Origin: Cyanidioschyzon merolae | Lineage: Eukaryota | Direction: 5' to 3' (one strand) | Length of the DNA: 64,000 nucleotides | NCBI GenBank assembly: GCA_000091205.1 | Contig: AP006490.2 | Shown: positions 516 to 43,345 of the stretch, in pieces | Layout: each line of letters opens with the position of its first letter | Position numbering within the stretch: position 1 is the stretch's first letter | Translations under genes and position numbers: made by a program | The notes under the pieces: generated by a model | Told to the model about the DNA's origin: nothing | What the model saw: only the letters and a program-made list of their open reading frames with translations | Databases searched by the model: none

Positions 516-1355
516 AAGTTTATCGAACCTGTTTGTGCGTAAAACGTAGTTTTTGTATGTATGGTCGCTGTTTGGCATCCGGGTCCCTCACAAAGTCTCG
601 GAGCGGTCGCGTATGATGCACCGCCAGCGCCGTGAACCCGCTCGTTGCCCGGCTGCGGACAGCGCGTCGGCACTGCTTGCCGCATGCACGCCAGCAAGAC
701 GAGCTCGACGGGCGCCTGCGAGACAACTCCGTAAAAGCGCGCTCTGCACTATGAGAGACAAGCGCACGACGTCCATGACACCAAATATGATCTGGTACGC
801 GGGGATCGAGTTTCGTCGCTGACCACGAACGAAGCATTCCCGGTGCGATCTGTAAATGGAACAGCTAGGAGATGCCCGCAGACGCTCCGTTGACGAAGAC
901 GCGTATATTAAAGAAGACCATGCGATCCTGCTGGTCATCGTGATCGTGCGTTCTGTGCTTCTGGTAGTGACGAGCACAGCAGGCGCAACGCCTCCGCTCA
1001 GCTAGTTTTCCATCGTTCCAGTGCGGCAGCATCGTATATGGCATCTTCGCTACTGGCGCTGCACACACGCCTGCGATCTGCTCTACTGAAGAGTCCGCGA
1101 GACGAACGAAGCAATCGCGGGATATGCGATGCCTGTCAGCATTCAGTTAATCGACGACCGCTGCACATCAGACTTCGTACGTGCCGAGAACCCGGGGCAA
1201 GACTTGCCTTCGTGGATCACGATGCAGCGCGGGAGCGCTCCTGAGGCACGGCACGCGGGACATCCGCGAACGCATCCATGGTGTTGTAGGGGGCAGCCAA
1301 CCGCCATGCGGTATCGAGGATACCGCTGCGCCGATGGACAAGTCCAAGCGAACGT

Positions 1356-2792
1356 TTACACAGAACCGTTGAATGCCGGGGTCTCCTGCGAGCCTGCCTT
1401 GGCCATGCGCCAGACGTCGTCGCCTCGAGCGAGCAACTCTATCAGGTGCAGGCCGCTGGGCGTCTCCACGATGCCACTCAGTTGGCCGGGTTCCAGGTTG
1501 CGAACGGCTCGTTCGAATTCTGCATGCATCTCACCGGGCCCAAAAGGACGTATCCGACCGCCGTATCGGCTGCTTTTGCAATCGCTATGCTGCAAGGCCA
1601 GCTGTTCAAACGAGACGAGTCCGCTTTGTATCGTTTTCTGGAACTTGGACAGAAGGGCCCGCGCTTCCGCTTTACTACGCACAATGGGGTGGCCCTTCAG
1701 GTCGCTAGGGTTTCGTGATCCGGTATGCTTCAACAATATGTGACGAACATAAAAGACATCGTCCGGTGCCCGAGTCGCGTTCGACTGGGTCGCATCTGTG
1801 TCGCCACCGGTGATGCCGCTCGCGGGTGATGCCTGCTGCTCCGGACAGCGGCGACCGAGCAGCTGAATCAGATGGAAGCCAGACGAGGTCTCCACAACGT
1901 CGCTGATATCGCCGGTATGTTTCAGCTCCAGAAACGCCACTCGGGCAAATGGCTCCTGCATGGTTGTGTAGTCAAACCAGCCCAGGTCGCCACCTCGTTT
2001 GTAAGAATTACAGTCTGATTCGATTCGAGCGACCTCCTCAAAGCTTGCTTCCCCGCTGAGAATGTGTTGCCTCAGAGACTCAATCACAGCGCGTGCCTCA
2101 TCTCGGCTAATGCTCACTGGTTGTCCGGTGCGCTTGGATACCGGGTTCCGCACGTCGCGATGTTTGATAAGGATATGGCGAGCGCGCACCTGTCCAGGAA
2201 CTGGAGCCGCCGCAGTGCTCTCCGCAGGCGATTGACGCTCTGGAGCGCCACCAAGCCGAAGCCTCACGTATTGGGAGCTAGACCCGAACTCTATACGCGA
2301 GCCTTCAGCGATTACAAGTGGCTTAAGCGGCTCAACTTGTTGTCCACGTACTCGCGTGGCCCCAGCGCCCAAGTCGATCAGATAAAACTTTCGATGTTCG
2401 CGGTGAAATGCGACGGCAGCGTGGAGCGCTCCAACGTCAGACGCGTCCGCGAGAACAATGTCAACTGCAGTGGCCTTTCCTTGGCCGTTTCCAACAAGCA
2501 GGTAGCCCCGATTCGCCGGAAAAGGAACTTTGCGGACCCGCTCGTTGCTCTTTTGAGTGTAAACGTCTAGACGTGCGCCAGACGGTGCAGCCCCTAGCCA
2601 ACGTGGTTCTTTAAAGGTAGGTTGGGCTTTTACACCAGAAGCTTTGCGAGCAGCTTCCATAGTCTTTCCGTGCGACTTACCTCCCTGAGCGAGCGCGGTT
2701 TCGCCAGCGCTTTGTTTCCCTCTGTAGTAGACACGACCCACCGGTTTGATAAAGTATACCGCTTCTTTGCTCCCAAAGGTTTCCACGAACAA
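1356..2792 (-). CDS. FHA-domain protein with two tandem parvulin-type (PpiC/rotamase) peptidyl-prolyl isomerase domains
   Basis: 478-aa ORF. N-terminal region has an FHA-like block (GYLLVGNGQGKATAVDIVLADASDV...FYLIDLGAGATRVRGQQVEP...RIEFG). Two rotamase domains (ARHILIKHRDVRNP...GDLGWFDYTTMQEPFARVAF...SSGFHLIQLL and VRHILLKHTGSRNP...SGLHLIELLAR) resemble Pin1/Par14-type PPIase cores. TAA stop. Confidence 0.7.
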   Translation of the reverse strand: MFVETFGSKEAVYFIKPVGRVYYRGKQSAGETALAQGGKSHGKTMEAARKASGVKAQPTFKEPRWLGAAPSGARLDVYTQKSNERVRKVPFPANRGYLLVGNGQGKATAVDIVLADASDVGALHAAVAFHREHRKFYLIDLGAGATRVRGQQVEPLKPLVIAEGSRIEFGSSSQYVRLRLGGAPERQSPAESTAAAPVPGQVRARHILIKHRDVRNPVSKRTGQPVSISRDEARAVIESLRQHILSGEASFEEVARIESDCNSYKRGGDLGWFDYTTMQEPFARVAFLELKHTGDISDVVETSSGFHLIQLLGRRCPEQQASPASGITGGDTDATQSNATRAPDDVFYVRHILLKHTGSRNPSDLKGHPIVRSKAEARALLSKFQKTIQSGLVSFEQLALQHSDCKSSRYGGRIRPFGPGEMHAEFERAVRNLEPGQLSGIVETPSGLHLIELLARGDDVWRMAKAGSQETPAFNGSV

Positions 2793-5154
2793 CTAGAACG
2801 CTGTAGTCTCTACAAATGCGCCCTTGAATATGGAACCTTTCATTGCTACTGAAGTCAGACAGCCGAGCTTTTGGTGCCACAGCTCGAGACGGCTGCGTGC
2901 ACCCCTCTGTAACGCAGGCGTCGTGCCGCCGAACGCTACCCCAGCGAAGTGCGAGCTCGTGCGCACGGCTTTAGCGCCTTTTGCGGCAAACTAGGTGCGC
3001 TGGTCTCGACGCTCACCTTGGGCTACGTCGACATTCGAACGATATTCATCCTTACTGCCGCTGCTGCCGTCATCGGTTTCCTGGCGACGTTCATCTTCCT
3101 TCCGGATGCAACCGGGTTGGATCTGCGCGAACATGACTGGGAATGGGACCTGACTCTTCGTAACCACGCTGAGCTGTACGGCGGCGAGGCCGCCAATCTA
3201 CGACATCTGTCGCTCTGCGAACGCTGGCAAGGCAGAGGCAAACGCTACACGCCGCACTGGCGAGCCCAGTTGCGCAAAGAGGAACGTTCAAGTGATGCAG
3301 CGGCAACCAAGCTAGCAACACCGCCGATCGCGGCGAGCACCCTCATACCGTCTACTGCTCCTGACAATCGCTGAGCATCGAGCGAACGATCCGGTACGAT
3401 GATACGGAGTATGGATGCCGTGCGCGTTGTAAAGGATCAAGTGATATCTATTGACGCTGAGCGAAAGCGTGAGCGACGTACAACTTGACACTTGGGCGCA
3501 GCAGCGCGACGACACGAGCCATGTTCCCGTTTCGAAACGCGAGCACAGCACGAAGGTATCAGCAGTACCAGCGGGTGACTGCGGTAGAACGAGCACTCGC
3601 GCTGCCTGGCAGCGTCTCGCGCATCGCATGGAACTGGAACTCGTGCGTTGCGTTTACGACGAAAGCGCTACACCTGGATCCACCTAAAATGGAATAGGTC
3701 TCATAATTTGGACGCGCTCTCTAAAGCTCGAGACTGTTTCCACTGCCGCCAACACTAGTGTGTGCGGGGATTTTCTGCAACAGCGCCCGTTTGCTCTCTC
3801 TTATTTCAGATTTTAGATACGCCCGTCTCTCCTTTCTTTGCGGCTCCGATGTCAGCAGTGAAAGCACGATGGCGGTAGCGTCAGCATCCCGATTCGGACG
3901 CTTCTGGTTGTTTGCGACGCATTGCGTTCACGGACGGGAGATGCAATCTACGGTTCGCTTGCCATTTCGAGCCTCTTGGTATGCAACTTCTGTGCAAACT
4001 CTCTAGCTGTGGCACTTGGTTGTGGTCAGGCCCTCCCGAATGCATGTGTCAGACCTGCCCGTGCTCCGAGCGCTGCTGTGTCGCGCGTCCAGGCTCGCTG
4101 CGTCGCTCTGTTCATACCCCTTCGGATCCAGAAGGCTCCATTGGATGCTGTTCTCGTTTTCAACGCTCAGTGCTGCATCCAACGATCTGGGGCTTCTTCT
4201 GAGTGATGTCCTCCGGGAGTATTCTGTCTGGTGCACGGGCGGTTGCAGGCTATTCCCGCTGACCGAGGATGTATGGAACGTGATGAATTCCATCATAAAT
4301 CGAATACCAAAAACAAAATCCAGGCTGGAGATCATAAGCACAAGTGTCTGCCCGTCACCGTTCCCATTGTGCAAAGCGATGAAGACGCTCTCCGCTGGAC
4401 CCAGTGGATGCGATGACTCAATTCCGAAGACAAGAGCCTTTTCGATGCAAACAGAAGATACGGAAGCGTTTGGGAGCGTGTCACCCGAAATGCAGCATGC
4501 CGGTGCTGTCGAATGCAGTTGTGTCACTGGTCACAGCCACAGGAGGGTTTGTCTTTCGAACGCAATCGAATATTTGGGTGAGAAACTCAGGGACTTTTCG
4601 GCTTGAGCTGGCGAAGAACGCATCCTGGAATGACGCCCCGTTTTTTGATTCCCCTTCAATCCCACATCGCCTATAACGTTCCTTAGCGAGAGATCCATAA
4701 AATTAAAGCACGCGCGATTTGAACATCCTGCACATAAGGAACGGAGAAGACCGGAGGCTTATCCATATGGACTGACGATTGATATCCTTTGTTTCACGAA
4801 AACTAGTTCGAAGGAGGCGTGAAACGTCCTCATTCCGGCCACGTACCGAATTCCAGCGGCAAAGCGTCGAAAGAGCCACGTCGAACAGCGTGACATGAAT
4901 CCTGAGGCTACTTGTATGCGTCCGTAAGCTGTTACTTTTTGCACGTCGAAAACCGACTTTGCACATCTAAATTTTCGTTCGAAAAATACTCCGAGATGTA
5001 GGAACAAAGCACAGCATCCCGTGGTGCACTTCACTCGGATACGTATGAAGCGTATGCCGCTCTTCGACGAACGCTAGCTCAGCTTGTCTGCTGCTTGCTG
5101 ACCTCGAGGCGACCAGTGAGCGCCTCGAAGCACTCGAGTTGTCACGCCTAGGGT

Positions 5155-5796
5155 ATGGGAAGCACGCAGGATGTGCTTTTGATGAAACGTGAACTTCGAA
5201 AGCGCATGCGGGAGCTGCTTCGGCAGGTGTCAAGGAACGATTTGCGAGAGCGTTCCGCGGAAGCCTGCCGACAGCTCACCAACTCGGAGGTGTTTCGGTC
5301 TGCACGAACTGTAGCGGCATTCTGCCACATGCCGACTAGCGAAGTGGAGACGACTGATTTGCTTGCCGCCTGTTTTGCTGAAGGGAAACGCGTTTTTCTG
5401 CCCCGTGTGGATGAAGGATCAGTGCGAAAGATGTTGTTTTTGGAGGCCCACGGTCTGCAGGACGTCGAGAGCTGGCCCCTGAACGCCATGGGTATTCGGG
5501 AGCCGCCTTCTACGTGGAACGGACAAGTCAGAAGAGAAGTGCGCACGCTGGTTGAGCGAGAGCGAAAACCTCTCGACCTCATTGTCGTGCCCGGACTCGC
5601 CTTTGACACGTTCGGTCGTCGACTGGGTCGCGGCAAGGGCTACTACGACACCTTTCTGGCGACGTGTGAGCATTTGCATCACGAGATGCAGCTTCCTCCG
5701 CCTCGAAGAGTTGGTCTTGCGCTTTCATGCCAGATGGTCACCGAGGTGCCGGTATCAGCACATGATCAGGTCGTGGAGGCAGTCTTTTACGCTTGA
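5155..5796 (+). CDS. 5-formyltetrahydrofolate cyclo-ligase (MTHFS family)
   Basis: ORF contains KRELRKRMRELL... and LIVVPGLAFDTFGRRLGRGKGYYDTFLA, the C-terminal signature of 5-FTHF cyclo-ligases. TGA stop. True start may be an internal Met (MKRELRKR at about 5185). Confidence 0.75.
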   Translation: MGSTQDVLLMKRELRKRMRELLRQVSRNDLRERSAEACRQLTNSEVFRSARTVAAFCHMPTSEVETTDLLAACFAEGKRVFLPRVDEGSVRKMLFLEAHGLQDVESWPLNAMGIREPPSTWNGQVRREVRTLVERERKPLDLIVVPGLAFDTFGRRLGRGKGYYDTFLATCEHLHHEMQLPPPRRVGLALSCQMVTEVPVSAHDQVVEAVFYA

Positions 5797-6726
5797 GGTG
5801 TCCGGCCATACCATGGAACGCTATGGCAAACGGGCACGCAGCTATAGCCATAGACGCTCGTACGCGCGCAAGCTTGACGATGAACGATAGCCCCGGGAAG
5901 CGCGAGCGTAAAAGCACTGACTCGGCACCGTGCACGATACAGATACCGCTGAACCTATTCATCACTGCATCGAAGCCGCAAGGCGAACTTTATCCGATCA
6001 AAACGATTGCTGAAGACTGCATGCACGACTAGAGGAGCTAGATGAAGGAACCTCTTCTGCAGGTGCATGCTCGCACTGCGTCCTATGCTGAAAAGCAGAT
6101 CCACCAACAATTCATGGGGAAGCGTACATTGCCACTGAGCACTTCACTATCCGAAAGCATCCTTCGGATGGAGTCCTTTGCCAAAACCGCGACACGACAG
6201 AGCGCTGATGGCAATCATTTCAGAAGCGTGATTATTTGACGTATGTGCGTTGCCGCGACAATAGAGCCGGCTAGGTTCGGGGATCTGGTATCATCGTAAA
6301 GAACGCAGTGCAATTCTGTGTCTTCGCGCATTGTTTTGCCCCGGTGGCATTGCACAAAGAAGTCCCTGCGTCTGAGGCAAGGCCTCGGGGTACACGCTGC
6401 ACCCGGGTCTCTGATGCCAGTAATGCTGGAGTGCTGCACTGCAGCGCACACAGGCTCACCCCTGGATGCAAAAGGCGCGTGTTCCTCGCAGCGTTTATGA
6501 TGCGTTTTCCCAAACCATGCGACAGTTTATCAAGGCCGCATCCAGAGGGCATGCACAGTCTGCGTTCCTTCAAGTATCGGGATTCTGCTGGCATAGACAC
6601 AACCACGCATCCGTGCGTACAGAGCTGGTGGTGCGATCGGTATTCGCCCAGGTGCCTCAGAGGCTGTGCAAGGCTCTCCCGCGCTCAACCATTCCACCAC
6701 CTGCCATCGTTGCGCCATCGGACTCA

Positions 6727-8607: not shown

Positions 8608-9651
8608 ATGCGGCTATTGTTGCAGCGTTGGAGCCAAACGATGCGGCACGGGAGCCGCAACGCGCTCGGGATCGTGAGGCTGCGATCCTTTCCTGGTTGC
8701 CTCTCTGGGTCGGAAAGTCGATCACACTGGAGGCCAGTCACGGTATGGAGCACGTGTGCAGCCGTCATCGCGGCGAGCTTAGCGAGCGTTCAACGCCCGG
8801 AATGGCGACCGTGGCTCTGCTACGCTGAGGCGTCCACCTCGCTAGAAAGTACACACAACTTCACGGCTGCTACGGAAAAAGTTGCACCCTTGAGCGATGC
8901 AGCGGAACCGGCAACAATACTGTGGAAACAACTGCCTGACTCGCTTGCAGAGCTGCGCAAGGCCGACATCGTGCTTTACCAATATGAAACATGTCCATTC
9001 TGCAATAAACTCCGGGCCTATCTGGACTATTGGCGAATACCGTACAAGGTTGTCGAGGTGAATCCAGTAGGCAAGAAGGAGCTAAAATTCAGCTCCTATC
9101 GCAAAGTACCCATTCTGGTGGTGAACGGCACACAACTCAACGACTCTGCTGCTATTATCAAAGCACTGGCGCGCATCACGGACCCGGACCGTGCGTTAAA
9201 CACGCAATGGTTCGACTGGATCGACTCCTGGTTTGTGCACACCTTACCACCAAATATATACCGCACCCGTCATGAGGCGCTGGAAACGTTTGACTACATC
9301 ACGGAAAAGGAGAAATTCTCGCCGTGGCAGCGCTTCACGATTCGCTACGTGGGTGCTGCGGCCATGTATTTTGTGAGTCGCCGCCTCAAGAAGAAGTATC
9401 ATATCGTCGATGAGCGCCAAGCACTCTATGATGCATGTCGTGACTGGCTCCAGGCTGTCGGTTGGCCAGAACGTCGTTTTCTGGGAGGTGCACGACCATG
9501 TGCTGCAGACCTGGCCATGTTTGGCGTCCTTCGCAGCATCGAGGGTTTCACAGCGTTTCATGAGCTCGCGGCCAATGTGCCGGAGATCGTTCAATGGTAT
9601 CGGATCATGAAGGACCAGGTGGGTCCGTCTGCGCGCATTGATTCGATGTAG
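8608..9651 (+). CDS. Prostaglandin E synthase 2-like protein (glutaredoxin/GST-fold, PTGES2 family), probably mitochondrial
   Basis: LYQYETCPFCNKLRAYLDYWRIPYKVVEVNPVGKKELKFSSYRKVPILV...LNDSAAIIKAL and C-terminal FLGGARPCAADLAMFGVLRSIEGFTAF align closely with human PTGES2 ([32 protein letters not shown]...FSSYRKVPIL...[24 protein letters not shown]). TAG stop. Confidence 0.75.
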   Translation: MRLLLQRWSQTMRHGSRNALGIVRLRSFPGCLSGSESRSHWRPVTVWSTCAAVIAASLASVQRPEWRPWLCYAEASTSLESTHNFTAATEKVAPLSDAAEPATILWKQLPDSLAELRKADIVLYQYETCPFCNKLRAYLDYWRIPYKVVEVNPVGKKELKFSSYRKVPILVVNGTQLNDSAAIIKALARITDPDRALNTQWFDWIDSWFVHTLPPNIYRTRHEALETFDYITEKEKFSPWQRFTIRYVGAAAMYFVSRRLKKKYHIVDERQALYDACRDWLQAVGWPERRFLGGARPCAADLAMFGVLRSIEGFTAFHELAANVPEIVQWYRIMKDQVGPSARIDSM

Positions 9652-10375
9652 AAAAGTTGCCGAATTTTCTGGTGAACTGATTACCTGCAGAACGCAAAGA
9701 ATGGAATTTTTTATCTATTTTGATGGATTGAGGATCGAAAACAATGCAGTGTTGCGTGTTGAACGCGAACGGCACAAAGAATGCAACGTTATCGATCTGG
9801 ATTGATTGTGGGTCTGGGCTGCGCAGAACGGTCTGGAAGATAGACGAGTCACCTGTGAGCACCCTCCATATCCTGAGCAAAGTACTTCGTCATCCGTGGC
9901 GAATCGTGTGCATATCTTGGATTTGTCATATGGGCAATTTTGATTGGTAGCCTGGTGCATTGCTGGTACACGTCATCCACCGAGATGCTTTGACTGTCTC
10001 ATACCAACAACCCATTCGCAAGAACGCACACGGCATCGTGTTTTGTTCCCGTAGCGGGAACTTCCGGTAGTAACCTCAACTGAGGAAGGAGCCGCTCGCT
10101 CGTGCTGCGCCCAAACCTCCAGCTGGGCATCATCATTTTTCATATCTCTGTTCAGTGCGACGAGCATGTAAAGGCAAAACTCATCAGAGATAGGCAGACG
10201 AACTAGGCACTTCCCTAGTAGCGAGGACTCTCGTTTAAGACGCCGAGTTGCCGGTGCGTCCTGCAACGTGCACCAGCGCTGTTCTCTATCGCCATCCGCT
10301 GGCTCACGCGGTACACCCAAACCTAGTCTGCGGGAAACTTACGCAAAGTTTCCAGGATCATAGCTTTGGGGCTCC

Positions 10376-10693
10376 TCACTCCCGAGTCGCGCTGTGCGTG
10401 ACCTCTTTTCGCTGGGTTGGCATCCCCAGCGACCGAACGAGGACGACGTTTTCGCCTTTGAGGAGGATCGTCCCTAGAGCAACCGTCCGCCGCTTATGCT
10501 TTGCAGTACTTCCCCACTGCTCCACGGTGTCGACCAGAACTAGATTGGTGTGTTCGTCGAAGCCGCGCAAGGTGCCTTCCAGAGAGTATCTGGTGTTTTC
10601 GAATAACCAGACCTCAACGCGGGCTTGTTGGCGCGCCAGCGTTGCTAACAACTGCTCTGGAACTATCCGTCTGTCCAGAGCGTCCTTCGGCAT
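10376..10693 (-). CDS. Sm-like (LSm) small nuclear ribonucleoprotein family protein
   Basis: 105-aa ORF with an Sm fold pattern (VEVWLFENTRYSLEGTLRGFDEHTNLVLVDTVEQ...LGTILLKGENVVLV). TGA stop. The C-terminal tail is slightly longer than typical. Confidence 0.55.
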   Translation of the reverse strand: MPKDALDRRIVPEQLLATLARQQARVEVWLFENTRYSLEGTLRGFDEHTNLVLVDTVEQWGSTAKHKRRTVALGTILLKGENVVLVRSLGMPTQRKEVTHSATRE

Positions 10694-10949
10694 CTATGTT
10701 CACCACTTAAGTTGGCTGCAGGCGTGCAACCAGGGGATTTTGCCTGCTTTTCACGGTTTGCTCGGGAGCAGATAACAGCGCGAATGCCGAAGCGAACAAC
10801 GTTACGTCAGCGCAGCAAACCCGTTTCGCCACAATATCGTGTACATGAATATCCACCCGCAGACGTGTCTCAGCCTTTTCTTACAGGGTTCTGGTATCGG
10901 TTTCAGTTTCTCCATATACACTCCGACGCTGTGAGGCTGCCCAACAAAG

Positions 10950-11600
10950 TTAGCTTGCCGCAGCGCTGCGTGCCTCGCATTCAGCACAAGCATCTCCTGA
11001 TATTGATACCAGCGTTGAGGTCTCGGTTCATGGACTCCATGCGTTTGTTGCCGCTGGTTGATCTCACCAATGATAGGAGACCAGAACTCGTGTACGCTGT
11101 GCCATTGGGTGCTCTGTCAGCTCTTCGTGCTGATTTGTCGACGAAATGCTCCGCTGGCCTCGCTCCAACTCAACGTCCTAGGGTGTATATTCCAGCTCAT
11201 CCCTTCGATTTTTCGAAAATGAACGCATTTGCTTATAGCCTGAGATGAGAACCTTCCCGCATCGAGCAGCACATGCGGAATAAAGACCAAATGTGCCCCG
11301 GTTGGTCACCATGTGCTGAACGCTTCATCAATTCGCCCGGTGGAGCGATCGTGACGATTCAGGACCCCAAACTCTCCTTCTATGGGGATGAACCACGGGT
11401 GACAAGAAGGAATGAAACCAGCTCTACCCCTCGATAGAATTGGCAAGTGCTCGAACTGAAGCAGAACGGCTGAATACCACTGTGTCCAATAGAAGGACCT
11501 TACCAGACGTTTGGGACAAGTCTTCAATGACTCGACAAAAAGAGGGCGCTGCTGCATGAGTGTTCTCTTCAGCGGAACTGAGGCAGCCAAATGAATCCAC
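10950..11600 (-). mobile_element. Degraded fragment (copy 4) of the TnpB/Fanzor-like element family, minus strand, frameshifted
   Basis: The minus-strand translation gives VELERGQRSISSTNQHEELTEHPMAQRTRVLVSYH and, after a frameshift, GNKRMESMNRDLNAGINIRRC. These match copy 1 ([39 protein letters not shown]...[21 protein letters not shown]). The plus-strand ORF 10712..11248 is the mirror image of the same region. Confidence 0.5.
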
Positions 11601-11633
11601 CGCAGCTAGAACAGATGATGATGTCGACGTTCT

Positions 11634-12173
11634 CTACGATTTCGAGCGTACGAGCAACGGGCTCCCGCTCAGCAAGTATTCATCTGCGCTGCGATTGTCT
11701 CGTTTGAAGCAAGTCTCATCGAGTGAGAAAATAAACTGATGTTCCTGTGCTTCATACCGATCGCGACGTTCCAGGAACGCCGTGCCTGCGATTTCGGTGG
11801 AAGCTGGCCGTGAATGAACTAGCACTTTATTGCGATTGGATCCCGGTGTTTTCAGGATCACGCGAATAAGCTGTTGAGAAACAGAGACGCCCGTGGTGGC
11901 TACTATGGACGCATTTGCTTCCCGTAAATTGATCAACTGGTCGTTTTCTATCACTGAGTGCAGGCAGGCTTTGAGAATATCAGGTTTCGGCCCGGAGCGC
12001 ATATACTTGTTTCTTTCAGTGCTCGTCAAGCATCTGCGTATAGTGGTATGATTGACATCGAGGAGCAACGCAATTATCATTGCATTGTTCAGTGAAGAAT
12101 ACATATGCCGTATGCAATTCCTCCACAATCTATACAGAACATTACCTAGTGATTTCAACCTCCTCCTACACAC
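11634..12173 (-). mobile_element. Tc1/mariner-like transposase N-terminal fragment (paired-like HTH plus start of the DDE domain), truncated
   Basis: ORF aligns with Tc1 transposase N-terminus: TGVSVSQQLIRVILKTPG versus TKVSISTVKRVLYRHNLKG, and FIFSLDETCF versus VLWSDETKIELF (first D of the DDE triad). It lies directly upstream of, and on the same strand as, Fanzor-like copy 4. Confidence 0.45.
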
Positions 12174-12712
12174 CGCAGCCGCGATGAAAGAAAATTGAGT
12201 TGAAAGACTATCAACCGAAGCGCCTTTACGTCGTAACAGCGTCTGGTACTCGAAATTCTAACGCAGCCACGTACCAGCAGCGGATCGAGACGGTGAACGG
12301 ACGCACCAGCGTATACCTCTATGTACGGTATTCGCCTCTACCAGATACGCAGCATGCCTGCGATCAATGCGAACAGGCATCGAAGTGCCCTTGGTACCCA
12401 AGTTTTGCCGTCCGAGCATGCCTTCCTCGAAGACGCACCTTGCATCTATCCTCAGATCGTCGAAAACGACACCAAACATGCTTCTGCACAGCGTCCTGTC
12501 GTACAAGCGCGCCAAGTAGGCGTTTGTTTTCAGCACGGTGCTGTCTGACGCTTGGACTGCACGAGTGTAGATGCTACCGATCCCGACCAGGTCCACGGCA
12601 CCTGATAGCTGACGAGCAGGTTCCGCTGCGACTCCAAGCCCGGCAATTGGCAAGCACACGAGTCGCGCTCAACTTGCAGAGCGCTGTGTCGATCGCCGAT
12701 GCTGCCCTTGGT

Positions 12713-14599
12713 CTAACGATTCAGAGTGGCAATGTTGACAGCAGGCACGCGCCGCTGACGCACAGCTTGAGGATCGCTTCGATTCGAGACCACGGCGACA
12801 ATACGCGACCATTTCAGCGCACCGAATGCGACTTCTCCGTCACTGGCCTGCAGCTCAACTAGGCGTCGTGCAACGCGCATCTTAGCTTCCAGGACCTCGA
12901 GGGAAGCGTCCGTCGGGTCGCAGAGCCAATCCACAAAGCCCGCCATACTAGCCAACGCGACAACTCCGATTCTCGACAGACCTAGCGCAGCGAATACCGC
13001 CGCAGCAGCGAGCCGCTCTTCTTCCGAAGGATGCCGTGCACAGTCCAGGACAATGGGCAGTGCATTCGTGAACGCCTTGACGGGATCCGCATCCCTGATC
13101 GCATCAGTGAACAGATGCAGCACCCTTTGCTGCCGAAATTCGAGGTCGGATTCGGCGGCTCCGTACCCTGAGACGGCTGCTGATGAAAGCGGCTCGTCGA
13201 GACCTGCCAGGAACACACTCAAAGCACGCAAGGAGGCCACTCGAATATCGCACACGCTCGCCGTTTGAATGAAACGAAGCGTTAGTTTCAAGGTGTCAAC
13301 GTCCGCAAGCAGCACGTCCATGCCGCGTTCACAGAGCCCCAGAGCGCCAACCGCGGAGATCAGATGCACCAGCAGTGTCGTCCGACGAACTTGATCAAGT
13401 CGTACGGACCAGTGTGCTGTCTCAGTCTCGCCATCTACCACGTGAAGCAAGAGAAAGCGCCCAAGAATCTCTACGAGATTGGCGTTCATCCAAGCGTGGA
13501 AGGCGCAACGACTGGACCCGGCACTGGTGCGCACGAACCTCAGAATCCCACACATCCAAATAAACCAGCGTTCCGCCAAGTCGCTCGAGGCAGGCTCGTC
13601 TGGCGCCAACAAATGGGCAAGGTGTTGGCGTAGCAGCACATCGAATACCGAAATTTGGTCGAGCAACTCGGCTGCTATTGCACTGCGTTGCATAAAAGCC
13701 CCAAGCACATCCAGCAAGTTCAAGCGGAGTAGCAAGTCCTCATCCAAACGAACAGGAGCTGCGATTTTGGCTACAAGCACGGTTGGCAACAGCCGACGTG
13801 CGGCAATCTCTGCAACAGACGAGTAGTCGCAGATCTCAAGCAGGAAGCTCAAGGCTCGGATATGCGCGACCGCACCCGCTGCACCCGAGAGCATCTCCTG
13901 TACGAGGATTTGCGCGCCTCGTGCTTCGCTGAAGAGCACAACTGCGCCGCGGAACGGCTTCAGCTGTACCAGGTTCTTCAGGATTTTTTCACAAAGTCCC
14001 GCAGCTTCGGTGGATGGATCATCACGGAAGCTCAGCAGCACCAGTGACAGGATATCGCTGGCGTGCTGTGCAGTTGTGCTGGGAGCGTCCACTTCTGGAC
14101 CTGGCGCTTGTGCGGCCTCTATCTCCGGACGAAGCTCGTTCGTACTTTCAAAACGTTCGATAATGGTGTCTGCAACTTGCTGACAAAACGCTTCAGGCAA
14201 GTCATTCCGTTCAAGAAGGAGACAAAGCAGACGGAGCGCAGCTGTGCGTACCAGCGGGTACCGGCTGCTCAGACCGAGCTGGATGAGCTGGAGCACCTGC
14301 TCTGTAGGTACGACGTGACGAACTCGGGCACTTGTTGCAGAGAGCTTGACCAGTTTCTCCATTGTTTTCGTTAATACCCGGATGGAATCAAATATGTTGT
14401 CGGATGGTACCGCGTCGCTGTCTGAAGCCTCGAGCGACGCCCGCACCGCGTACTCCTCCAGTGTCCAGCCCAGCAGCGGTAACGGCAAACGCTCCAGCAA
14501 GTCCAGTGCCGCACACTCCGACAGTGCTCCAGCGTCTACATATTCCCTCACTGTATCCAATACTTTATCGGGAGTCCAGTCATTGTGGTGAGCGTTCAT
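12713..14599 (-). CDS. Hypothetical HEAT/ARM-repeat-like helical protein (628 aa), function unknown
   Basis: Long uninterrupted ORF with Leu-rich amphipathic helical repeats. No specific family recognised by eye. TAG stop. Confidence 0.4.
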   Translation of the reverse strand: MNAHHNDWTPDKVLDTVREYVDAGALSECAALDLLERLPLPLLGWTLEEYAVRASLEASDSDAVPSDNIFDSIRVLTKTMEKLVKLSATSARVRHVVPTEQVLQLIQLGLSSRYPLVRTAALRLLCLLLERNDLPEAFCQQVADTIIERFESTNELRPEIEAAQAPGPEVDAPSTTAQHASDILSLVLLSFRDDPSTEAAGLCEKILKNLVQLKPFRGAVVLFSEARGAQILVQEMLSGAAGAVAHIRALSFLLEICDYSSVAEIAARRLLPTVLVAKIAAPVRLDEDLLLRLNLLDVLGAFMQRSAIAAELLDQISVFDVLLRQHLAHLLAPDEPASSDLAERWFIWMCGILRFVRTSAGSSRCAFHAWMNANLVEILGRFLLLHVVDGETETAHWSVRLDQVRRTTLLVHLISAVGALGLCERGMDVLLADVDTLKLTLRFIQTASVCDIRVASLRALSVFLAGLDEPLSSAAVSGYGAAESDLEFRQQRVLHLFTDAIRDADPVKAFTNALPIVLDCARHPSEEERLAAAAVFAALGLSRIGVVALASMAGFVDWLCDPTDASLEVLEAKMRVARRLVELQASDGEVAFGALKWSRIVAVVSNRSDPQAVRQRRVPAVNIATLNR

Positions 14600-15355
14600 T
14601 CAGCAACAGGTTATCACGCTTTGAGATAGACATATCCAGAAGCAATCTCCTGATCGGCGGCGGGGCGCAGGACAGCCGCTGCGCGTGCACGCGCACCTGG
14701 CAGATCCGGCGGGCACGAGACACGACGCTCTGGTCGCTCCTGAGGGGAACAGTGATCCTGATCATTGGCGTGCTATTCTACTGTAAAAGTTGTATTCGCG
14801 TTGAGGTCGTAGCAAAGTATAGGTTTTCTGTTCCATCCTATTCCGACCCTCAATTGAGTATATTCAAGTGTTTTTTCGAAGTAAATAACAGAAGCGTTCA
14901 AAGAGCGTTCGTTTTCATAAAAAATTAAAAGGAAAGGCATGGAAATGGAAGTGGAGGATCCCGGAGGGCCGATATCGCCGGCTCTCGGAAAAGAAGGATA
15001 AACATGGCGGAGCAAAGAGGAACAGGAAGTGATGAAGAATCAAAAGGGGGCGAGGTTCTACGTCGAAGGCGGCAAGAAAGGCAACTGTACGGCGATATTG
15101 TAGTGAAAGCCTGTGTTCTTAAATATATCAAGGATCCGTAGAAGGAAAAGTTGCCGGACGCCATCAAAAACCGTCTCGAGTCGTACTCCATGAGTATGAT
15201 AAAGGCTTCTTCAGGACCGACGCATTTGGTGAGGGAGATGTATCGCTACGTGACGAACATGGAAACGGTCGAGATTCCGGACGAGTTTTTCGACAACACA
15301 TTTTTTCGTCACTTGATGCTTGGCACAGGGGAAGAGCGGAAGGATATAAGAGCTA

Positions 15356-17506
15356 GTGCATGCCCCTCACGAACAACATCCCTTTTGCAGGTTCGAGGGT
15401 AATCGAAACAAGGGGGACTGGGGTATTTACGACTATGGGGCGATGAAGTACATCACGAACCTGAAGAACCATTTGAAAACGAACCTCGAACGTTTCATGA
15501 TACGCGCCGTGTTTGCACTCTACCGGGGCCTGTCTCGCAAAGGAATATGGGCGATTATCAATGGCATCACGAACGATCGAAACTATGGAAATGAGGTCGA
15601 ATTCGTTGACAAGAAGGAGTCAAACCAGAGCACGAATGAGAATTCCGTCATCCGTGCGGTTATCGAAGAGCATCGTGCGGTACTGGGGCTGGCGAATCCA
15701 ACAGACAAGATATCAGAGTTGAAAAAAGATAGGGAAAGATACGATCGCCTCGTTCTGCGCTATTTTGTGTTTCTGGACCGAGAGCTCGAACGCAAAGCGG
15801 AGATGAAGCTGAGTGAAGAGACAAATGAAGAGTGGGAGAGACGGAAGGCTTTCCTAATGGGTAAGCGCTTCGACGTGGTTCCAATGTGCAAGATCAAGTC
15901 ACATTTTATGACTATCGACTCCGGCGTCCTTTACGGCATCATGAGGGAGATCTGTCCGGAGTTCGATGTAAGGAAGACAGAGTTCCCCGGTGAAAACCGT
16001 GAGACGTACTGGAAGAATATCTTCGATTTCAAACGTCGCAAAGTCAGCAAACAAAAGGTATTCACTGGGTTGATCGAAACCGAAAGAGTAGCCTTGTGTA
16101 TACACTATCGGAGGTTGAAGAAAGATCGGCCAGTCCCTCCCTCGGCTGCGTCCGTCACGAAAAATGAAGAAAAGGAGGAGGCTGGTCCTGCGAAGCAGGA
16201 GGTAGAGGATAACGACCTTGTCGTTCACGCGGCGAAGAATGAAGAAAAGAAGGAGGCGGGTCCTGCGACGCAGGAAGTGGAGGGTAACGACCTTGTCGTT
16301 GACGTGACGAAGGATGAAGAAAAGAAGGATGCGGATCCTGCGACGCAGGAGGTAGAGAATAACAGCTTCATCGTTAACGCGACGAAGCATGAAGAAAAGA
16401 AGGAGGCGGGTCCTGCGATGCAGGAGGTGCATGAGAAGGACCTTCTCGTTGGCGCGGCGAAGGATGAAGATGAGAAGGATGCGGATCCTGCGACGCAGGA
16501 GGTAGAGAATAACGACTTTATGGTTGACGTGACGAAGCATGAAGAAAATGAGGATGCGGGTCCTGCGACCCAGAAAGTGCAAGATAACGACTTTGTCGTT
16601 GGCGCGGACCCTGGGAATACGAATATCATCACCATTGCAGCACCGAAGCGTGCGGAAGATCGTACTGACGGCAACTTGCGTCAGAAAGACATGCGTCTTT
16701 TGAGGTTCTCGAGAGCGAGATACTATCGAGAATCGGGAATCATGAATGCGAGGAAGAAAATCGAGACTTGGAATTCAGGAATGAAAGAGCACCTGGAAGC
16801 TGTGAGCGAGGTAACGAGCCGAGGAGCGGACTTTGAAGCTTTTCGGAAATTCATGGAAGTTCGTGTTGCGCATTGGGATGCTCTGTGGGAGGAGTATACC
16901 AAGCCCCGGTGGGCTCGACTGCGTATGAATCTATACGGTGGGAGGCAGCGCGCATTCCCAAATTTTTTCAATCAGTTGAGTGCCCTGAAGGAGGATGAAA
17001 GTCAGAGGCTCGTAGTAGCGTACGCAGCAGGGCGCTGGAAGACCCAAAAAGGGACTACTCCGGCCCCAACGACAAGAACGTTCAAGGAGTGCGCAAGGCG
17101 TTTCGTTACGATACCTGTAGATGAGTTCCGAACGTCGTATACGCACCATGAACTGGGGTGTACACTCCAGAGGGTGGAGATGGAAAAGTGCCAGCGGAGC
17201 CCTGAGGACACAGCAAAGCACGGACTGCTGACGGAGGAGCAAATGGAAAGGATGGCAAAAGTTCGTGGACTGCTTGCATTAGTGAGTACAACCAGTGATG
17301 GTAAGAAACGTATGGAATTCGTGAACCGTGACTTTAACGCCGCTATCAATATACGGAAATGTGCGGTGCTGGAGAAGAGACCTCCAGAATTGACAGGAGA
17401 GAATTTCGTTGGACAACCTCTCAAAGTCGAACTATATGAGAAAAAGTTGGAGGCAGTTGTAGGCGGCCGGTCGAGAAAGGCTGGGAGGCGTCTGCACGTC
17501 AGGTAA
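15356..17506 (+). CDS. TnpB/Fanzor-like RuvC-fold nuclease protein (transposon-encoded, IS605-OrfB/Cas12-related family)
   Basis: RuvC-I-like [15 protein letters not shown]. TnpB-like linker [26 protein letters not shown]. Zn-finger-like segment [11 protein letters not shown]...EKCQRS. Diagnostic RuvC-III motif [18 protein letters not shown] near the C-terminus. TAA stop. Confidence 0.7.
16160..16609 (+). repeat. In-frame 75-bp (25-aa) tandem repeat x6 inside the Fanzor-like ORF
   Basis: Units [150 protein letters not shown]. The last unit runs into the RuvC-I strand. Copy 2 has a single unit. Confidence 0.85.
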
Positions 17507-17824
17507 AGAGTTTTGTCTAAGGCGCCGGTCGTCTCAACTGTACACTGGCACCATCGCCGGTGCATTCGACAGATGGTGTCCATGTTGTACTGAATTTACC
17601 AGTCTCCGGCGTCGTGCAGCCGCGGCCCCGCTGCAGCACTGGCAGTGTCGCCACCGCCGTCCTTTCGTTCGCTCATCGGGTATCGTCTCCAGTCCGACTT
17701 GCTAGTGGCCCGCCTTCCCTGTAGAGGAAACAGGGACTGGACTGTTCGTGACCTCGCTACCGAGTTCCGGTCGCTGTTTGAGTTCTCTTGCAGTTGCGGT
17801 TTCCGCTAACTACTTGTCTTTCGC

Positions 17825-37439: not shown

Positions 37440-38171
37440 TCAGGAATTACCGTTGCCAACCAGGCGTCGTCCGCTGAAGCTGAACGCCTGAGCACCATCA
37501 TCCAGCGCATTGCGTTCCTCGTCGTCACTGTCACTCAGCGACTCGAGTTCACTTGCACTACCATTGGATGCCGCCCTGGTCGTATCGTGCGCCGAATCAG
37601 CGGCAGCGTTCGCAGTCGCACCCTTAGATGAAGAGGCCAGGGAGGATGTGCTCGGTTGGGCACTCCGGCTCTGCTGATGGCGACGCAGCGCCTGCGTTCT
37701 TGACGCCACTGGATAGTCCTCCTCGCGTGCATATCGATTCACGAATTCTCTCACTTTCTGTTGGAAACGCTGTGGCTCACGAAGATGCAGTGCCGCCGCT
37801 TCGCCGTTCAGAGGGTCCTGGCTGTTCGGATACGTGAGCAGCTGCGGTAGGAAAACCTCGAAAACGTTCAAAAGATCGAAGAGCGGCGACCAGGTCTGGT
37901 TAATCACATCCAAGCACACAGACCCACTCATCTGGTCGATGTTCGGATGATAGATAGCGTTCACGAAGCCGATACTTGGAGACTTGTATGGGTAGGCCTC
38001 GGGGAGCTCCACGTGTACCTTCCAGACACCGCCTTCGTAGGGCGTGTCCTTGGGACCCCGAAACTTCACGTAAAACTCCGCGTTGGAGTCCTCGTTCGCC
38101 ATTTCCACCTCGTAGTCCGCCATGACCAACTTCATTATGTCCATTTCGCGACGTCTTCCCGGAGACGACAT
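37440..38171 (-). CDS. Ubiquitin-conjugating enzyme E2, UBE2H-like
   Basis: [22 protein letters not shown]...[87 protein letters not shown] is a near-colinear match to human UBE2H from its MSSPGKRR start. The ORF track extends to 38255, but the homology-supported ATG is at 38169-38171. TGA stop. Confidence 0.85.
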
Positions 38172-38264
38172 GCTCGTGACAACGCAGAAAGTACTGGGCT
38201 TTCGCAAGTCCGTGCGCACTGGCCAACCTTTTTTTAGTTCTCCAAGCAGTTTCACCTATGCACC

Positions 38265-40330
38265 CTGAAAATAAACGTCTTTCTAAGGAAAAACGCTGCC
38301 ACCGGCGGGCGCAATACAGTCTTGGCGAGAAACCCGCCCTGGACAAGACTTCTCCAACTGACGTGCAGACGCCTGCCAGCCTTTCTGGAACGGGCACCCA
38401 CTACTGCTTCCAATTCTTTCTCATATAGTTCCATTTTGAGAGGCTGTCCGACAAAATGCTCTCTTGTCTACGCTGAAGGTCTGTTCTCCATCACCGCACA
38501 TCGCCTTCAATGGATAGCGGTATTTACGTCCCGGTTCTCAAACTCCATACGTTTCTTGTTATTGATCGTACTTACTGATGCAAGTTGTCCACGAACTTTT
38601 GCCATCCTTTCCATTTGCTCTTCCGTTAGCTGTTCGTACTTTTTTATATCTTCAGGGCTCCGCTCGCACTTTTTCATCTCAACTCTCTGGCGTGTACAAC
38701 CCAGTTCGTGGTTTGTATACGATGCCCGGAACTCATCGATGGGTATCGTAACGAAACGCCTTGCGCACTCTCTGAATGTTCTTGTCGTTGGAGCTGGCCT
38801 AGTCCCTTTTTGGGTCTTCCAGCGCCCTGCTCGGTACACTACTAAAAGCCTCTGACTGTCCTCCTCCTTCAAGGCGCTCAACCCATTGAAAAAGTTTGCG
38901 AACGCCCGCTGCATCCCCCAGTACAATTTCATAATGAAAAGAGAACACCGGGGCTTTGTATATTCTTTCCACAGCGCCTCCCAATGGGCAACACGAACTT
39001 CCATGAATTTCCGAAAAGCTTCCTAGGCCGCTCCGCGGCTCGTCACCTCGCTCAAAGCTTCCAGGTGATCATTCATTCCTGCATTCTACGTCTCGATTTT
39101 CTTGCTTGCATTCATGATTCCCGATTCTCGATGGTATCTCGCTCTCGAGAATCTCAACAGACGCATGTCTTTCTGAGGCAAGTTACCGTCAATGCCATCT
39201 TCCGCACGCTTGGGTACTGCGATGGTTACGATATTCGTGTTCCCGGGGTCCGCGCCAACGACAAGGTCGTTATCCTGGGGATTATACATTTCAGGGCCCA
39301 CCTCCATCTTATCTTCATGCTTCGTCACGGGCGAAGCGCAAGGCGCGATGGGACGATCCACCTTCAACCTCCGATACTGTACACACATGGCTACTCCATC
39401 GGTTTCGATCATCCCAGCGAATACCTTTTATTTGCTCACTTTGGGACGTTTGAAATCGAAGATATTCTTCCAGTACGTCTCACGGTTTTCACCGGGGAAC
39501 TCTGTCTTCCTTACATCGAACTCCGGACAGATCTCCCTCATGATGCCTTGAAGGACTCTGGAGCCGATGGTCACACAGTGTGACTCGATGTTGTTCAACG
39601 GAACGACGTTAAATTGCTTCCCCATTAGGAAAGCCTTTCGTATCTCCGACGCTTCATTTTTCTCCTCACTCAGCTTCATCTATGCCTCGCGTTCCAGTCC
39701 TCGGTCCAGGAACACGAAATAGCGCAGGATGAGGCGATCGTATCTTTTCTTATCTTTTTTTTCATCTCTGATAACTTTTCTGTTCGGTTCGCCAGCCCCA
39801 GTACCGCACGATGCTCTTGTATAACCCAACGGATTACAGGAGCTTCATTCTTTCTCCTGCGTGATGTCTTCTTGTCGAAGAATTCGATCTCCTGTTCATT
39901 CTGGCAATCCTTCGTGATGCCATTGATAATCGCCCATATTCCTTTGCGAGCGATGCCCGGGTAGAGTGCATAGACGGAGCGTTTCATGAAGCGTTCGAGG
40001 TTCATCGTCAAATGGTTCTTCAGGTCCGTATGGTACTTGATCGTCCCGTAGGTTTAAAGATCCGAATCACCCCTGTATCGTGTACCCTCAGGGCGGTACT
40101 CGGCGTGATTCTCGTGGAGGGCATGAACCCGCTCATTTCCCCTCCGCGTTTCCCCTGTGCCAAGCATCAGGCGACAAATCAAGGTCCTGTCGAAAACGCT
40201 TTCGAAATCTCGACTGGTTTGATGTCCGTCACTGCTGCTGTGCCAGGGAAACTTCGTGCGCCTGATCGCACGCTGGAATGTGTTGTCGACGGGGCGCACT
40301 TCGGTGCAATGGATGGAACGTTGCGGAGCG
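38265..40330 (-). mobile_element. TnpB/Fanzor-like element, copy 2 (inverted, frameshifted/degraded, single repeat unit). Boundaries are approximate
   Basis: Minus-strand ORF pieces 40054..40299, 39676..40011, 39428..39679, 39086..39412, 38507..39004 and 38252..38434 are colinear with copy 1 protein (LMLGTGE..., [11 protein letters not shown]..., [69 protein letters not shown]..., [23 protein letters not shown]). Conserved 3' tail is present. Confidence 0.65.
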
Positions 40331-42717: not shown

Positions 42718-43345
42718 TTTTTTTTTCAGTGAGTTGAGTGCCTTGAAGGAGGATGAAAGTCAAAGGCTCGTAGTAGCGTACGAAGCAAGGCGCTGGACGA
42801 CCCAACAAGGGTGTACACCAGATCCCACGACGAGAACGTATACGGAGTGCGCAAGGCGTTTTGTTATAATACCGGTAGATGGATTTCGAGCATTGTATAC
42901 ACACCATGAACTGGGCTGTACACTTCAGAGGGTCGAGATGGAAAAGTGCCAGCGGGGACCTGAGGATATAAAAAAAGTACGGACCGCTGACAGAAGAGCA
43001 AATGGAAAGGATAGCGAAAGTTCGAGGATTGCTTGCGTTAGTAAGTACAATCAACGGCAAGAAACGTATGGAGTTTGTGAACCGAGACTTTAACGCCGCA
43101 ATCAATATAAGGAAATGTGCGGTGAGAGAGGAAAGACCTCTCGGGTCGACGAGAGAGAATTTTGGAGGAAAACCGCTCAAAGTTAAACTATATGAGAAAA
43201 AGTTTGAAGCAGTAGTAGGTGGCCGGTCCAAAAAGACGGGCAGGCTTCTGCACATCAGTCGGAGACATTTCTTCTAGGGCGGCCCGGTCGCCACTACTGT
43301 ACACCGCTGGCGTCGTTCGCCTCCTGAACAGCGTTCGGTGTCGGC
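42715..43345 (+). mobile_element. TnpB/Fanzor-like element, copy 3. A 5'-truncated 3' fragment that begins at a poly-T tract
   Basis: About 90% nucleotide identity to copy 1 positions about 16962-17590. Encodes [20 protein letters not shown]... and [19 protein letters not shown] with frameshifts. Conserved post-stop tail is present. Confidence 0.65.

Follow-up and report, generated by a model that had tools for sequence, protein, structure and literature searches.

A dead element in Cyanidioschyzon merolae as the very probable remnant of a composite mariner-Fanzor1 transposon

Introduction

Composite transposons that combine a Mariner/Tc1 transposase with a Fanzor1 gene have been published for Pythium ultimum (PUl-1, PUl-2) and for a Phaeocystis globosa virus (PGv-1) (Bao & Jurka 2013, Mob DNA 4:12; PMC3627910), together with PUl-4, a Fanzor-only derivative with Mariner terminal inverted repeats (TIRs; PMC3627910). 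For Cyanidioschyzon merolae, a Fanzor1 family has been published as CMe-1A, with a consensus of 3169 bp and ~150 copies, no TIRs and an unknown classification among transposable elements (PMC3627910). In the Fanzors characterised so far, the guide RNA derives from 3' sequence next to the right end or TIR, and the folded RNA can reach into the open reading frame (ORF) (PMC10530073). Here, we describe an element of ~1.4 kb (~12212-10803, minus strand) in a 64,000-nucleotide stretch of C. merolae 10D DNA (contig AP006490.2; hereafter, the window), which is very probably a copy of a composite Tc1/mariner-superfamily (IS630-like, DD34E) DNA transposon, now dead and with part of its interior deleted. 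Since mariner-Fanzor1 composites have been known since 2013 and CMe-1A is published, this kind of system is not new; among the papers available for searching, none describes a mariner-type transposase family in C. merolae.

The inferred progenitor of the element would have resembled PUl-1, PUl-2 and PGv-1, with a DD34E transposase followed by Fanzor1 on the same strand, TIRs of ~24-33 bp and TA duplications. Unlike these, the window copy is a pseudogene in which an internal deletion has removed ~84% of the Fanzor gene. It does not share the TIR sequences of PUl-1, and the intact elements closest to it are metagenomic composites (loci L050, L051, L054, L056 and L057) and not the published ones. 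Internally deleted forms of autonomous cut-and-paste transposons are well known, such as Ds from Ac and deleted P and mariner elements. Like these, the present family has kept its ends and lost its interior, in several independent deletion classes from one progenitor, but in this case it was the passenger nuclease that was deleted and the transposase that survived, which would have left the derivative autonomous. A transposase is also paired with a TnpB-family nuclease, the 3' end of which abuts the right end, in the prokaryotic IS200/IS605 and IS607 elements (tnpA plus tnpB, with a right-end omega RNA); these use a Y1 or serine recombinase instead of a DDE enzyme, whereas the present system resides in a eukaryotic host.

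Results

The transposase pseudogene

From 5' to 3', the element consists of a left TIR, a transposase pseudogene, a short spacer, a Fanzor1 3' fragment and a right-TIR remnant, with the following features (slashes mark element boundaries):

12212-12184, minus strand: left TIR, GA/TAGTCTTTCAACTCAATTTTCTTTCAT, at the 5' start of conservation in a MAFFT alignment of 14 copies; 26 of 29 positions match the family consensus
12104-11306, minus strand: transposase pseudogene of the IS630/Tc1-mariner superfamily (DDE_3, DD34E), from Pfam DDE_3 and the alignment with PUl-1
11729-11706, minus strand: catalytic D1, FSLDE within FSLDETCF, from motif position
11636-11634, minus strand: in-frame TAG that cuts the transposase ORF; homology in the same frame resumes beyond it (AAVDSFG, 11606-11586)
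11498-11481, minus strand: catalytic D2, LLLDT, from motif position
~11435-11424, minus strand: frameshift in the DDE domain, in the D2-E interval, where the frame switches from ...ANSIEG and a stop to RAGFIPSCHPWFIPIEGEF
11392-11369, minus strand: catalytic E, PIE within FIPIEGEF, aligned with NPVE of the Pythium PUl-1 Mariner transposase
11308-11306, minus strand: natural transposase stop, TGA, in the same alignment column in the window copy, L003, L001 and L004
11305-11201, minus strand: spacer between the two genes, conserved among copies
11200-10854, minus strand: Fanzor1 3' fragment, the last ~117 codons (CMe-1 amino acids ~598-715), from nhmmer, blastn and tblastn
10830-10803, minus strand: degenerate right TIR, GGCGAAACGGGTTTGCTGCGCTGA(CGTA), at the 3' end of conservation, placed within ~5 nt

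The original prediction had read this region as a Tc1/mariner-like transposase remnant followed by the 3' part of a Fanzor-like gene, and matches to DDE_3 and to a Fanzor hidden Markov model (HMM) bear out both identities, the second part being a genuine Fanzor1 fragment. All the peptides it quoted lie on the minus strand: in addition to FSLDETCF and FIPIEGEF, listed above, these are TGVSVSQQLIRVILKTPG at 11894-11841, (D)VELERGQRS at 11177-11148 and NRDLNAGINIRRC at 11028-10990. The border between the two parts, however, had been misplaced. The ORF called by the program starts at 12173, with a plausible ATG at 12104, and runs for 179 amino acids to 11634; it does end in a TAG, but the transposase does not stop there, as its homology continues to the TGA at 11308-11306. 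Beyond the TAG the same frame reads AAVDSFG... and VLLLDT..., and after the frameshift follows ...FIPSCHPWFIPIEGEFGVLNRH...GRIDEAFSTW and then the stop, which comes after ...STGRIAEAF.. in all inspected family copies. With one stop and one frameshift bridged, the window reconstruction matched positions 4-138 of the 146 in Pfam DDE_3 (E=1.2e-7, 32.1 bits, against a cut-off of 28.6 bits). The majority consensus of 14 copies, 13 of them independent, restores a 267-amino-acid transposase and matched the same domain with E=9e-22 and 77.9 bits.

Because the DDE_3 match runs through the region past the TAG, FIPIEGEF, originally assigned to Fanzor, is the NPIE motif of the transposase. Instead of the N-terminus only, as predicted, the window copy thus keeps the whole ~265-amino-acid coding length with D, D and E, spread over two frames by the stop and the frameshift. 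In the family consensus the motifs read FSLDE, LLLD(T/N) and NPIE, with 34 residues separating D2 from E, and the consensus shares 31% identity with the Mariner transposase of Pythium PUl-1 across the DDE core (E=2e-13). Residues 48-93 of the consensus, which include the VSVSQQL block, gave a weak Tc3-type helix-turn-helix signal, matching HTH_Tnp_Tc3_2 (E=3.8e-4, 21 bits, under the cut-off of 31.5) and HTH_33 (E=3.5e-3); for several intact transposase relatives, PF01498 or PF13592 is among the precomputed annotations. When the raw ORFs were searched singly against Pfam and the PDB, nothing matched; matches were obtained only with reconstructions and profiles. The transposase ORF is broken in the window copy and in all 13 related copies alike. 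Two other motif assignments were rejected: AAVDSFG is not a catalytic D, the true D2 being LLLD, and RIDEAFSTW is not a Fanzor 'VDEFRTS' motif, as it belongs to the transposase C-terminus, before its conserved stop.

The Fanzor1 tail and the element ends

Downstream of the spacer, window positions 11200-10854 matched positions 2459-2816 of the Fanzor-element HMM (nhmmer, E=1.1e-29), far above chance level. Of the Fanzor-like region originally drawn at 11590-10950, the part from 11200 onwards therefore stands, whereas 11590-11300 belongs to the transposase. The tail is broken by two frameshifts; against the Fanzor ORF elsewhere in the window, tblastn returned three collinear high-scoring pairs in three frames (amino acids 607-701, E=3e-13), and blastn aligned 11200-10907 with positions 2737-3032 of the published CMe-1A consensus at 68% identity (E=1e-22). 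When the element was compared with the whole window by blastn, 11200-10991 matched 17148-17361 (E=8e-15), 43048-43117 and 38558-38499, the first of these at the end of the 716-amino-acid ORF described below. In the family consensus, the tail is one open frame of 133 codons, 65% identical over 117 amino acids to residues 599-715 of the window Fanzor (E=1e-47) and 79% identical (21% diverged) to the CMe-1A consensus. VELERGQRS is the counterpart of VEMEKCQRS in the CMe-1 Fanzor, and NRDLNAGINIRRC holds NRDLNAGINI of RuvC-III, the only RuvC region left. RuvC-I and RuvC-II are missing, and everything N-terminal of CMe-1 residue ~598 has been deleted, with the junction at 11200/11201, so that the fragment cannot be a nuclease. 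The last ~25 nt of the spacer (~11227-11203) are homologous to CMe-1A consensus 869-897, immediately 5' of the Fanzor ATG.

The ends of the element, which the prediction had proposed to check for TIRs and TA duplications, are recognisable only through the family alignment and the intact relatives described below. The family's 5' boundary, TATAGTCTTTCAACTCAATTTTGTTTCAC, aligns ungapped with the TIRs of intact composites at 17-18 of 29 positions, and a match of 18 was reached by 31 of 100,000 shuffles (p ~3e-4). At the other end, the 3' consensus read as its reverse complement, T(ATGT)TCAGTGGAACGAAAATGTTTCAC, can be aligned with the left TIR of L050. At the family level TIRs are thus present. 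In the window copy the left TIR is well preserved, but the right one is nearly erased and barely recognisable; the C. merolae family consensus has TA on its 5' side, where the window copy has GA, and the 3' flank of the latter is ambiguous.

Family copies and deletion classes

We refer to the family of transposase plus Fanzor-tail elements to which the window copy belongs as the chimera family. In Joint Genome Institute (JGI) metagenomes, the window transposase has one syntenic orthologue, 95% identical, and two relatives at other loci (38-47% identical). A metagenome scan with the transposase alignment found 44 loci on Cyanidioschyzon-like contigs, which represent 13 independent insertions. 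Every locus that was long enough retains only the C-terminal ~60-130 residues of Fanzor, 50-400 nt downstream of the transposase, and stops and frameshifts run throughout all copies.

The copies fall into deletion classes. In type I (7 copies including that of the window) the spacer is joined exactly to Fanzor-HMM position 2459/2460, with an identical junction. Type II (5 copies) keeps the Fanzor 5' untranslated region, the ATG and ~35-50 codons (HMM ~215-350/406; E=1e-13 to 3e-4), and its tail resumes only at HMM ~2540-2582, while a third class, seen at one locus, resumes at 2557 without the start piece. As types I and II each hold Fanzor sequence that the other lacks, a longer progenitor must have existed. 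Compared in pairs, the copies differ by ~30% over the transposase part and by 33% over the tail, and a tree of the transposase regions (unweighted pair group method with arithmetic mean) is a star phylogeny in which types I and II are not resolved as clades; the sequences thereby indicate what would have been an old burst, followed by neutral decay. At one type I locus (L033), an inverted CMe-1A fragment, comprising the 5' region and a C-terminal piece, lies immediately upstream of the element (~5366-5850, minus strand), which suggests that these repeats cluster.

Intact transposase-Fanzor1 composites

A search with the consensus transposase yielded 76 proteins, many of them intact at ~295 amino acids. 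We examined five independent intact loci (L050, L051/52/53, L054/55, L056 and L057/58), the transposases of which are 40-53% identical to the family. In all five, a full-length Fanzor1 of the CMe-1 family lies 30-90 nt downstream of the transposase on the same strand (hmmsearch against the CMe-1 family, E=4e-242 to 6e-20; hhalign, probability 100%, E=9e-169). The original prediction had suggested a relic of a transposase-Fanzor association and had stated that it would fail if intact family members never had the two genes side by side; the opposite was found, and the suggestion gains accordingly. L050 is bounded by 28-bp inverted repeats (350-377 and 3401-3428) that are 82% complementary and TA-flanked. 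L054 and L051 share its end type, TA/CACTC-N14-AATwwTGTTACAC, with TIRs of ~29 bp, and both L050 and L054 have TA on both sides.

L050 also has two tandem right-TIR-like copies (3351-3380 and 3401-3428), 50 nt apart; from the Fanzor stop to these TIRs the DNA is non-coding for ~125-175 nt, which is where a guide RNA would be expected. The flanks of L051, L054 and L057 are tightly packed, have 36-49% GC and encode Peptidase_M11, ERCC4, RNase III, DNA methylases, DUF5767 and DUF5906, neighbourhoods that resemble giant-virus or protist genomes. L056, with 56% GC and the best transposase match (53%), may come from a red alga.

Relationship to CMe-1A

Segments 17-44, 53-69, 1001-1028 and 1037-1381 of the chimera consensus are collinear with CMe-1A 786-813, 846-862, 869-897 and 2737-3084, the third match being 90% identical over 29 nt (E=9e-5). 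What CMe-1A lacks is therefore exactly the ~930-nt transposase block. CMe-1A 786-813 (window ~14817-14845) is an internal 29-mer, TATAGTTTTTCAGTTCAATTGTGTTTCAA, homologous to the left TIR of both the chimera and the intact composites; it has TA on its 5' side, and ...CTACTG/TA is found close to the 3' end of the family. On this evidence, the CMe-1A core may derive from a mariner-type composite embedded in other sequence (TE-N2_CMe). To judge from these alignments, CMe-1A looks like a reciprocal derivative, which would have kept the left-TIR homologue and the full Fanzor gene without the transposase segment.

The element and CMe-1A share the tail, the left TIR (24/29) and the spacer end; the element differs in having a transposase and in lacking Fanzor codons 1-~597, the 5' TE-N2_CMe part and the 3' ~85 nt specific to CMe-1A. 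The first 148 nt of the window CMe-1A 5' region, sought by nhmmer in the chimera flanks, were not found there, so that the two share no outer 5' sequence beyond the TIR homologue. By its sequence, which comprises only four CMe-1A consensus segments plus the ~930-nt transposase block, the element is evidently a relative of the CMe-1A family and not a member, that is, a putative sister derivative of CMe-1A and not a copy of it.

Genomic setting and resident CMe-1A copies

The element sits in a 2-kb gap between the genes for Sm protein E (10376-10693, minus strand) and a PSMD5-like protein (12713-14599, minus strand). Seven ATG-start ORFs of the window have exact matches in C. merolae 10D, on a chromosome of 739,753 bp, among them Sm protein E (BAM79869), a PGES2-like protein (BAM79868) and EF-1 alpha (BAM79877). 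The PGES2-like and Sm protein E genes adjoining the element (window 8608-10693) have near-identical paralogues, BAM80979/BAM80980, on a chromosome of 866,983 bp, and this segmental duplication could allow an empty-site versus filled-site comparison for the element.

Three copies of CMe-1A lie in the window: A, listed below, B at 40232-38276 (minus strand) and C at 42674-43312 (plus strand).

14689-17545, plus strand: CMe-1A copy A, a near-full Fanzor1 element, matching CMe-1A consensus 658-3137 at 84-90%

Copy A contains a 716-amino-acid ORF (15356-17506), the reference for the tail identities given above, which belongs to the published CMe-1/CMe-1A. The ORF alone matched nothing in Pfam or the PDB, but has 44 close homologues and, by profile, 2337 relatives in a representative library. 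The 44-sequence profile matched the Fanzor1 structures of Parasitella (9cf0, E=2.5e-20), Spizellomyces (8gkh, E=4e-14) and Guillardia (9cer, E=5e-10), and the same Fanzor1 structures took the top 7 places (E=9e-11 to 7e-7) in a Foldseek search with an AlphaFold model (pLDDT, the predicted local distance difference test score, 72), ahead of Cas12 and TnpB. This ORF is not full length: the N-terminal ~130 residues of CMe-1 (...SYSMSMIKASSGPTHLVREMYR...) are in another frame, in the ORF at 15151-15402. Copy A is interrupted by one or more frameshifts near 15356-15400 and, closer to its 5' end, by a stop that follows the ATG region, so that it is probably a pseudogene too. At 16153-16607 (plus strand), just before RuvC-I (GADPGNTNI), lies a tandem array of ~6 copies of a 75-nt unit that codes for 25 residues; the unit occurs once in the published consensus and is similarly expanded in P0004/L049, and the repeat stretch (residues 263-403) has a pLDDT below 40.

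Copies B and C are 5'-truncated and inverted, with their truncated ends facing a 727-amino-acid ORF (40534-42717) between them, and C begins, at 42674, within the first codons of this program-called ORF. The bracketing may be coincidence or rearrangement; by eye only, the ORF looked like a putative membrane transporter. GC and AT skews are strong at 15001-17000 and 38001-40000, where CMe-1A Fanzor copies have a purine-rich coding strand.

Discussion

A probable history from one composite progenitor

TnpB and Fanzor are known to aid the retention of their elements elsewhere through guide-RNA-directed cutting of vacated sites. We infer a progenitor which, between TA on either side, would have carried a left TIR, a transposase gene, a ~100-nt spacer and a CMe-1-type Fanzor1 gene running into the right TIR. 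Its transposase would have been a DDE cut-and-paste enzyme acting at TA sites, while the Fanzor1 passenger, by analogy with TnpB and Fanzor, would have used a right-end guide RNA to cut vacated or empty sites and thus have favoured retention of the element. In the type I lineage, a single deletion, possibly arising during repair such as abortive gap repair, would have taken the stretch from the Fanzor start codon to ~codon 597. As the resulting ~1.45-kb derivative kept both TIRs and the transposase, it could amplify in a burst, after which all copies would have decayed neutrally. The window copy, interrupted by an in-frame stop and three or more frameshifts, with its right TIR degraded and no TA duplication to be recognised, is inactive today.

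Several observations weigh against this history. Among the 44 Cyanidioschyzon-like loci, no copy with a transposase and a complete Fanzor was found, so that the progenitor is deduced and not observed; the C. merolae genome was sampled by the 64-kb window, all other copies coming from metagenomic genomes. An inverted-repeat search of 9000-14000 found no pair at the two ends of the element, and no TA target-site duplication is readable in the window copy. Moreover, CMe-1A copies share ~785 nt upstream of the left-TIR homologue (TE-N2_CMe plus ~150 nt) and ~37 nt past the putative right end, and for this reason CMe-1A cannot simply have been mobilised as a mariner-type non-autonomous element.

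A possible retained guide RNA and other readings

The tail of the element could also be more than debris. It might have been kept as a cis-acting module, a Fanzor guide-RNA gene and/or subterminal transposase-binding sites, with the Fanzor protein supplied in trans from CMe-1A, an explanation that we consider unlikely. The right breakpoints of the three deletion classes fall within ~100 nt, and each class retains the TIR together with no less than ~250 nt from the 3' part of the Fanzor coding region; three breakpoints are, however, too few to establish a constraint. The guide-RNA position in characterised Fanzors (PMC10530073) would fit such retention as well, since the C. merolae Fanzor ORF runs into the TIR and any guide RNA must therefore overlap the tail. 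Against it, minimum-free-energy fold z-scores are only -0.8 to -1.4 for chimera tails and reach at best -2.8, a weak signal, for CMe-1A 2950-3169; an Rfam search of the window matched no family; and the tail shows no extra conservation, diverging at least as fast as the transposase part (0.33 versus 0.30). Covariation is uninformative here because dead copies decay neutrally. Extended to a split two-element system, in which transposase-bearing derivatives kept the guide-RNA module, CMe-1A kept the nuclease and each complemented the other in trans, the idea becomes decidedly improbable; if true, it would classify CMe-1A as a mariner-superfamily derivative.

Very improbable, in our view, is a secondary capture, by which a transposase-only element took the 3' end of Fanzor, and in type II also its 5' start, from CMe-1A by recombination or template switching. 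Chimeras do arise by template switching in DNA transposons. Many chimeric Fanzor elements have been noted (Bao & Jurka; PMC3627910), and the full composite was not found in Cyanidioschyzon-like contigs. Capture would, however, have to occur at least twice, in the same orientation and at the same upstream junction (CMe-1A ~869), and the closest intact transposases are already paired, in the same order, with the closest Fanzor1 relatives. In addition, the tail consensus is 21% off that of CMe-1A, and the tail is therefore not a recent CMe-1A copy.

That two unrelated dead elements came to lie together by chance or by nested insertion, the latter an option of the original prediction, has next to no likelihood: although CMe-1A fragments abound in the window, which has three other copies, the same junction recurs in 7 independent type I insertions at different sites, the tail is present in all 13, no TIR or target-site duplication of a second element lies at the junction, and both flanks are the family's own TIRs. 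The two parts had also been called fused, and they do share a strand, with a consensus tail open for 133 codons, but the conserved transposase stop, three stops between the consensus reading frames, the stops and frameshifts that fill every copy and the absence of RuvC-I and RuvC-II make a transposase-Fanzor C-terminal fusion protein or a domesticated host gene practically inconceivable.

Implications

The composite origin accounts for a previously unannotated 1.4-kb intergenic stretch between the Sm protein E and PSMD5-like genes. The intact but uncharacterised metagenomic transposase-Fanzor1 composites identified here, with defined TIRs and in some cases virus-like neighbourhoods, are possible experimental models for the cooperation of a DDE transposase with an RNA-guided nuclease in eukaryotes. 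For C. merolae itself, the element reveals the missing transposase partner of its Fanzor lineage, and provides evidence that the CMe-1A core and the element are reciprocal deletion products of one mariner-type composite, which is thus a candidate origin for the unclassified CMe-1A.

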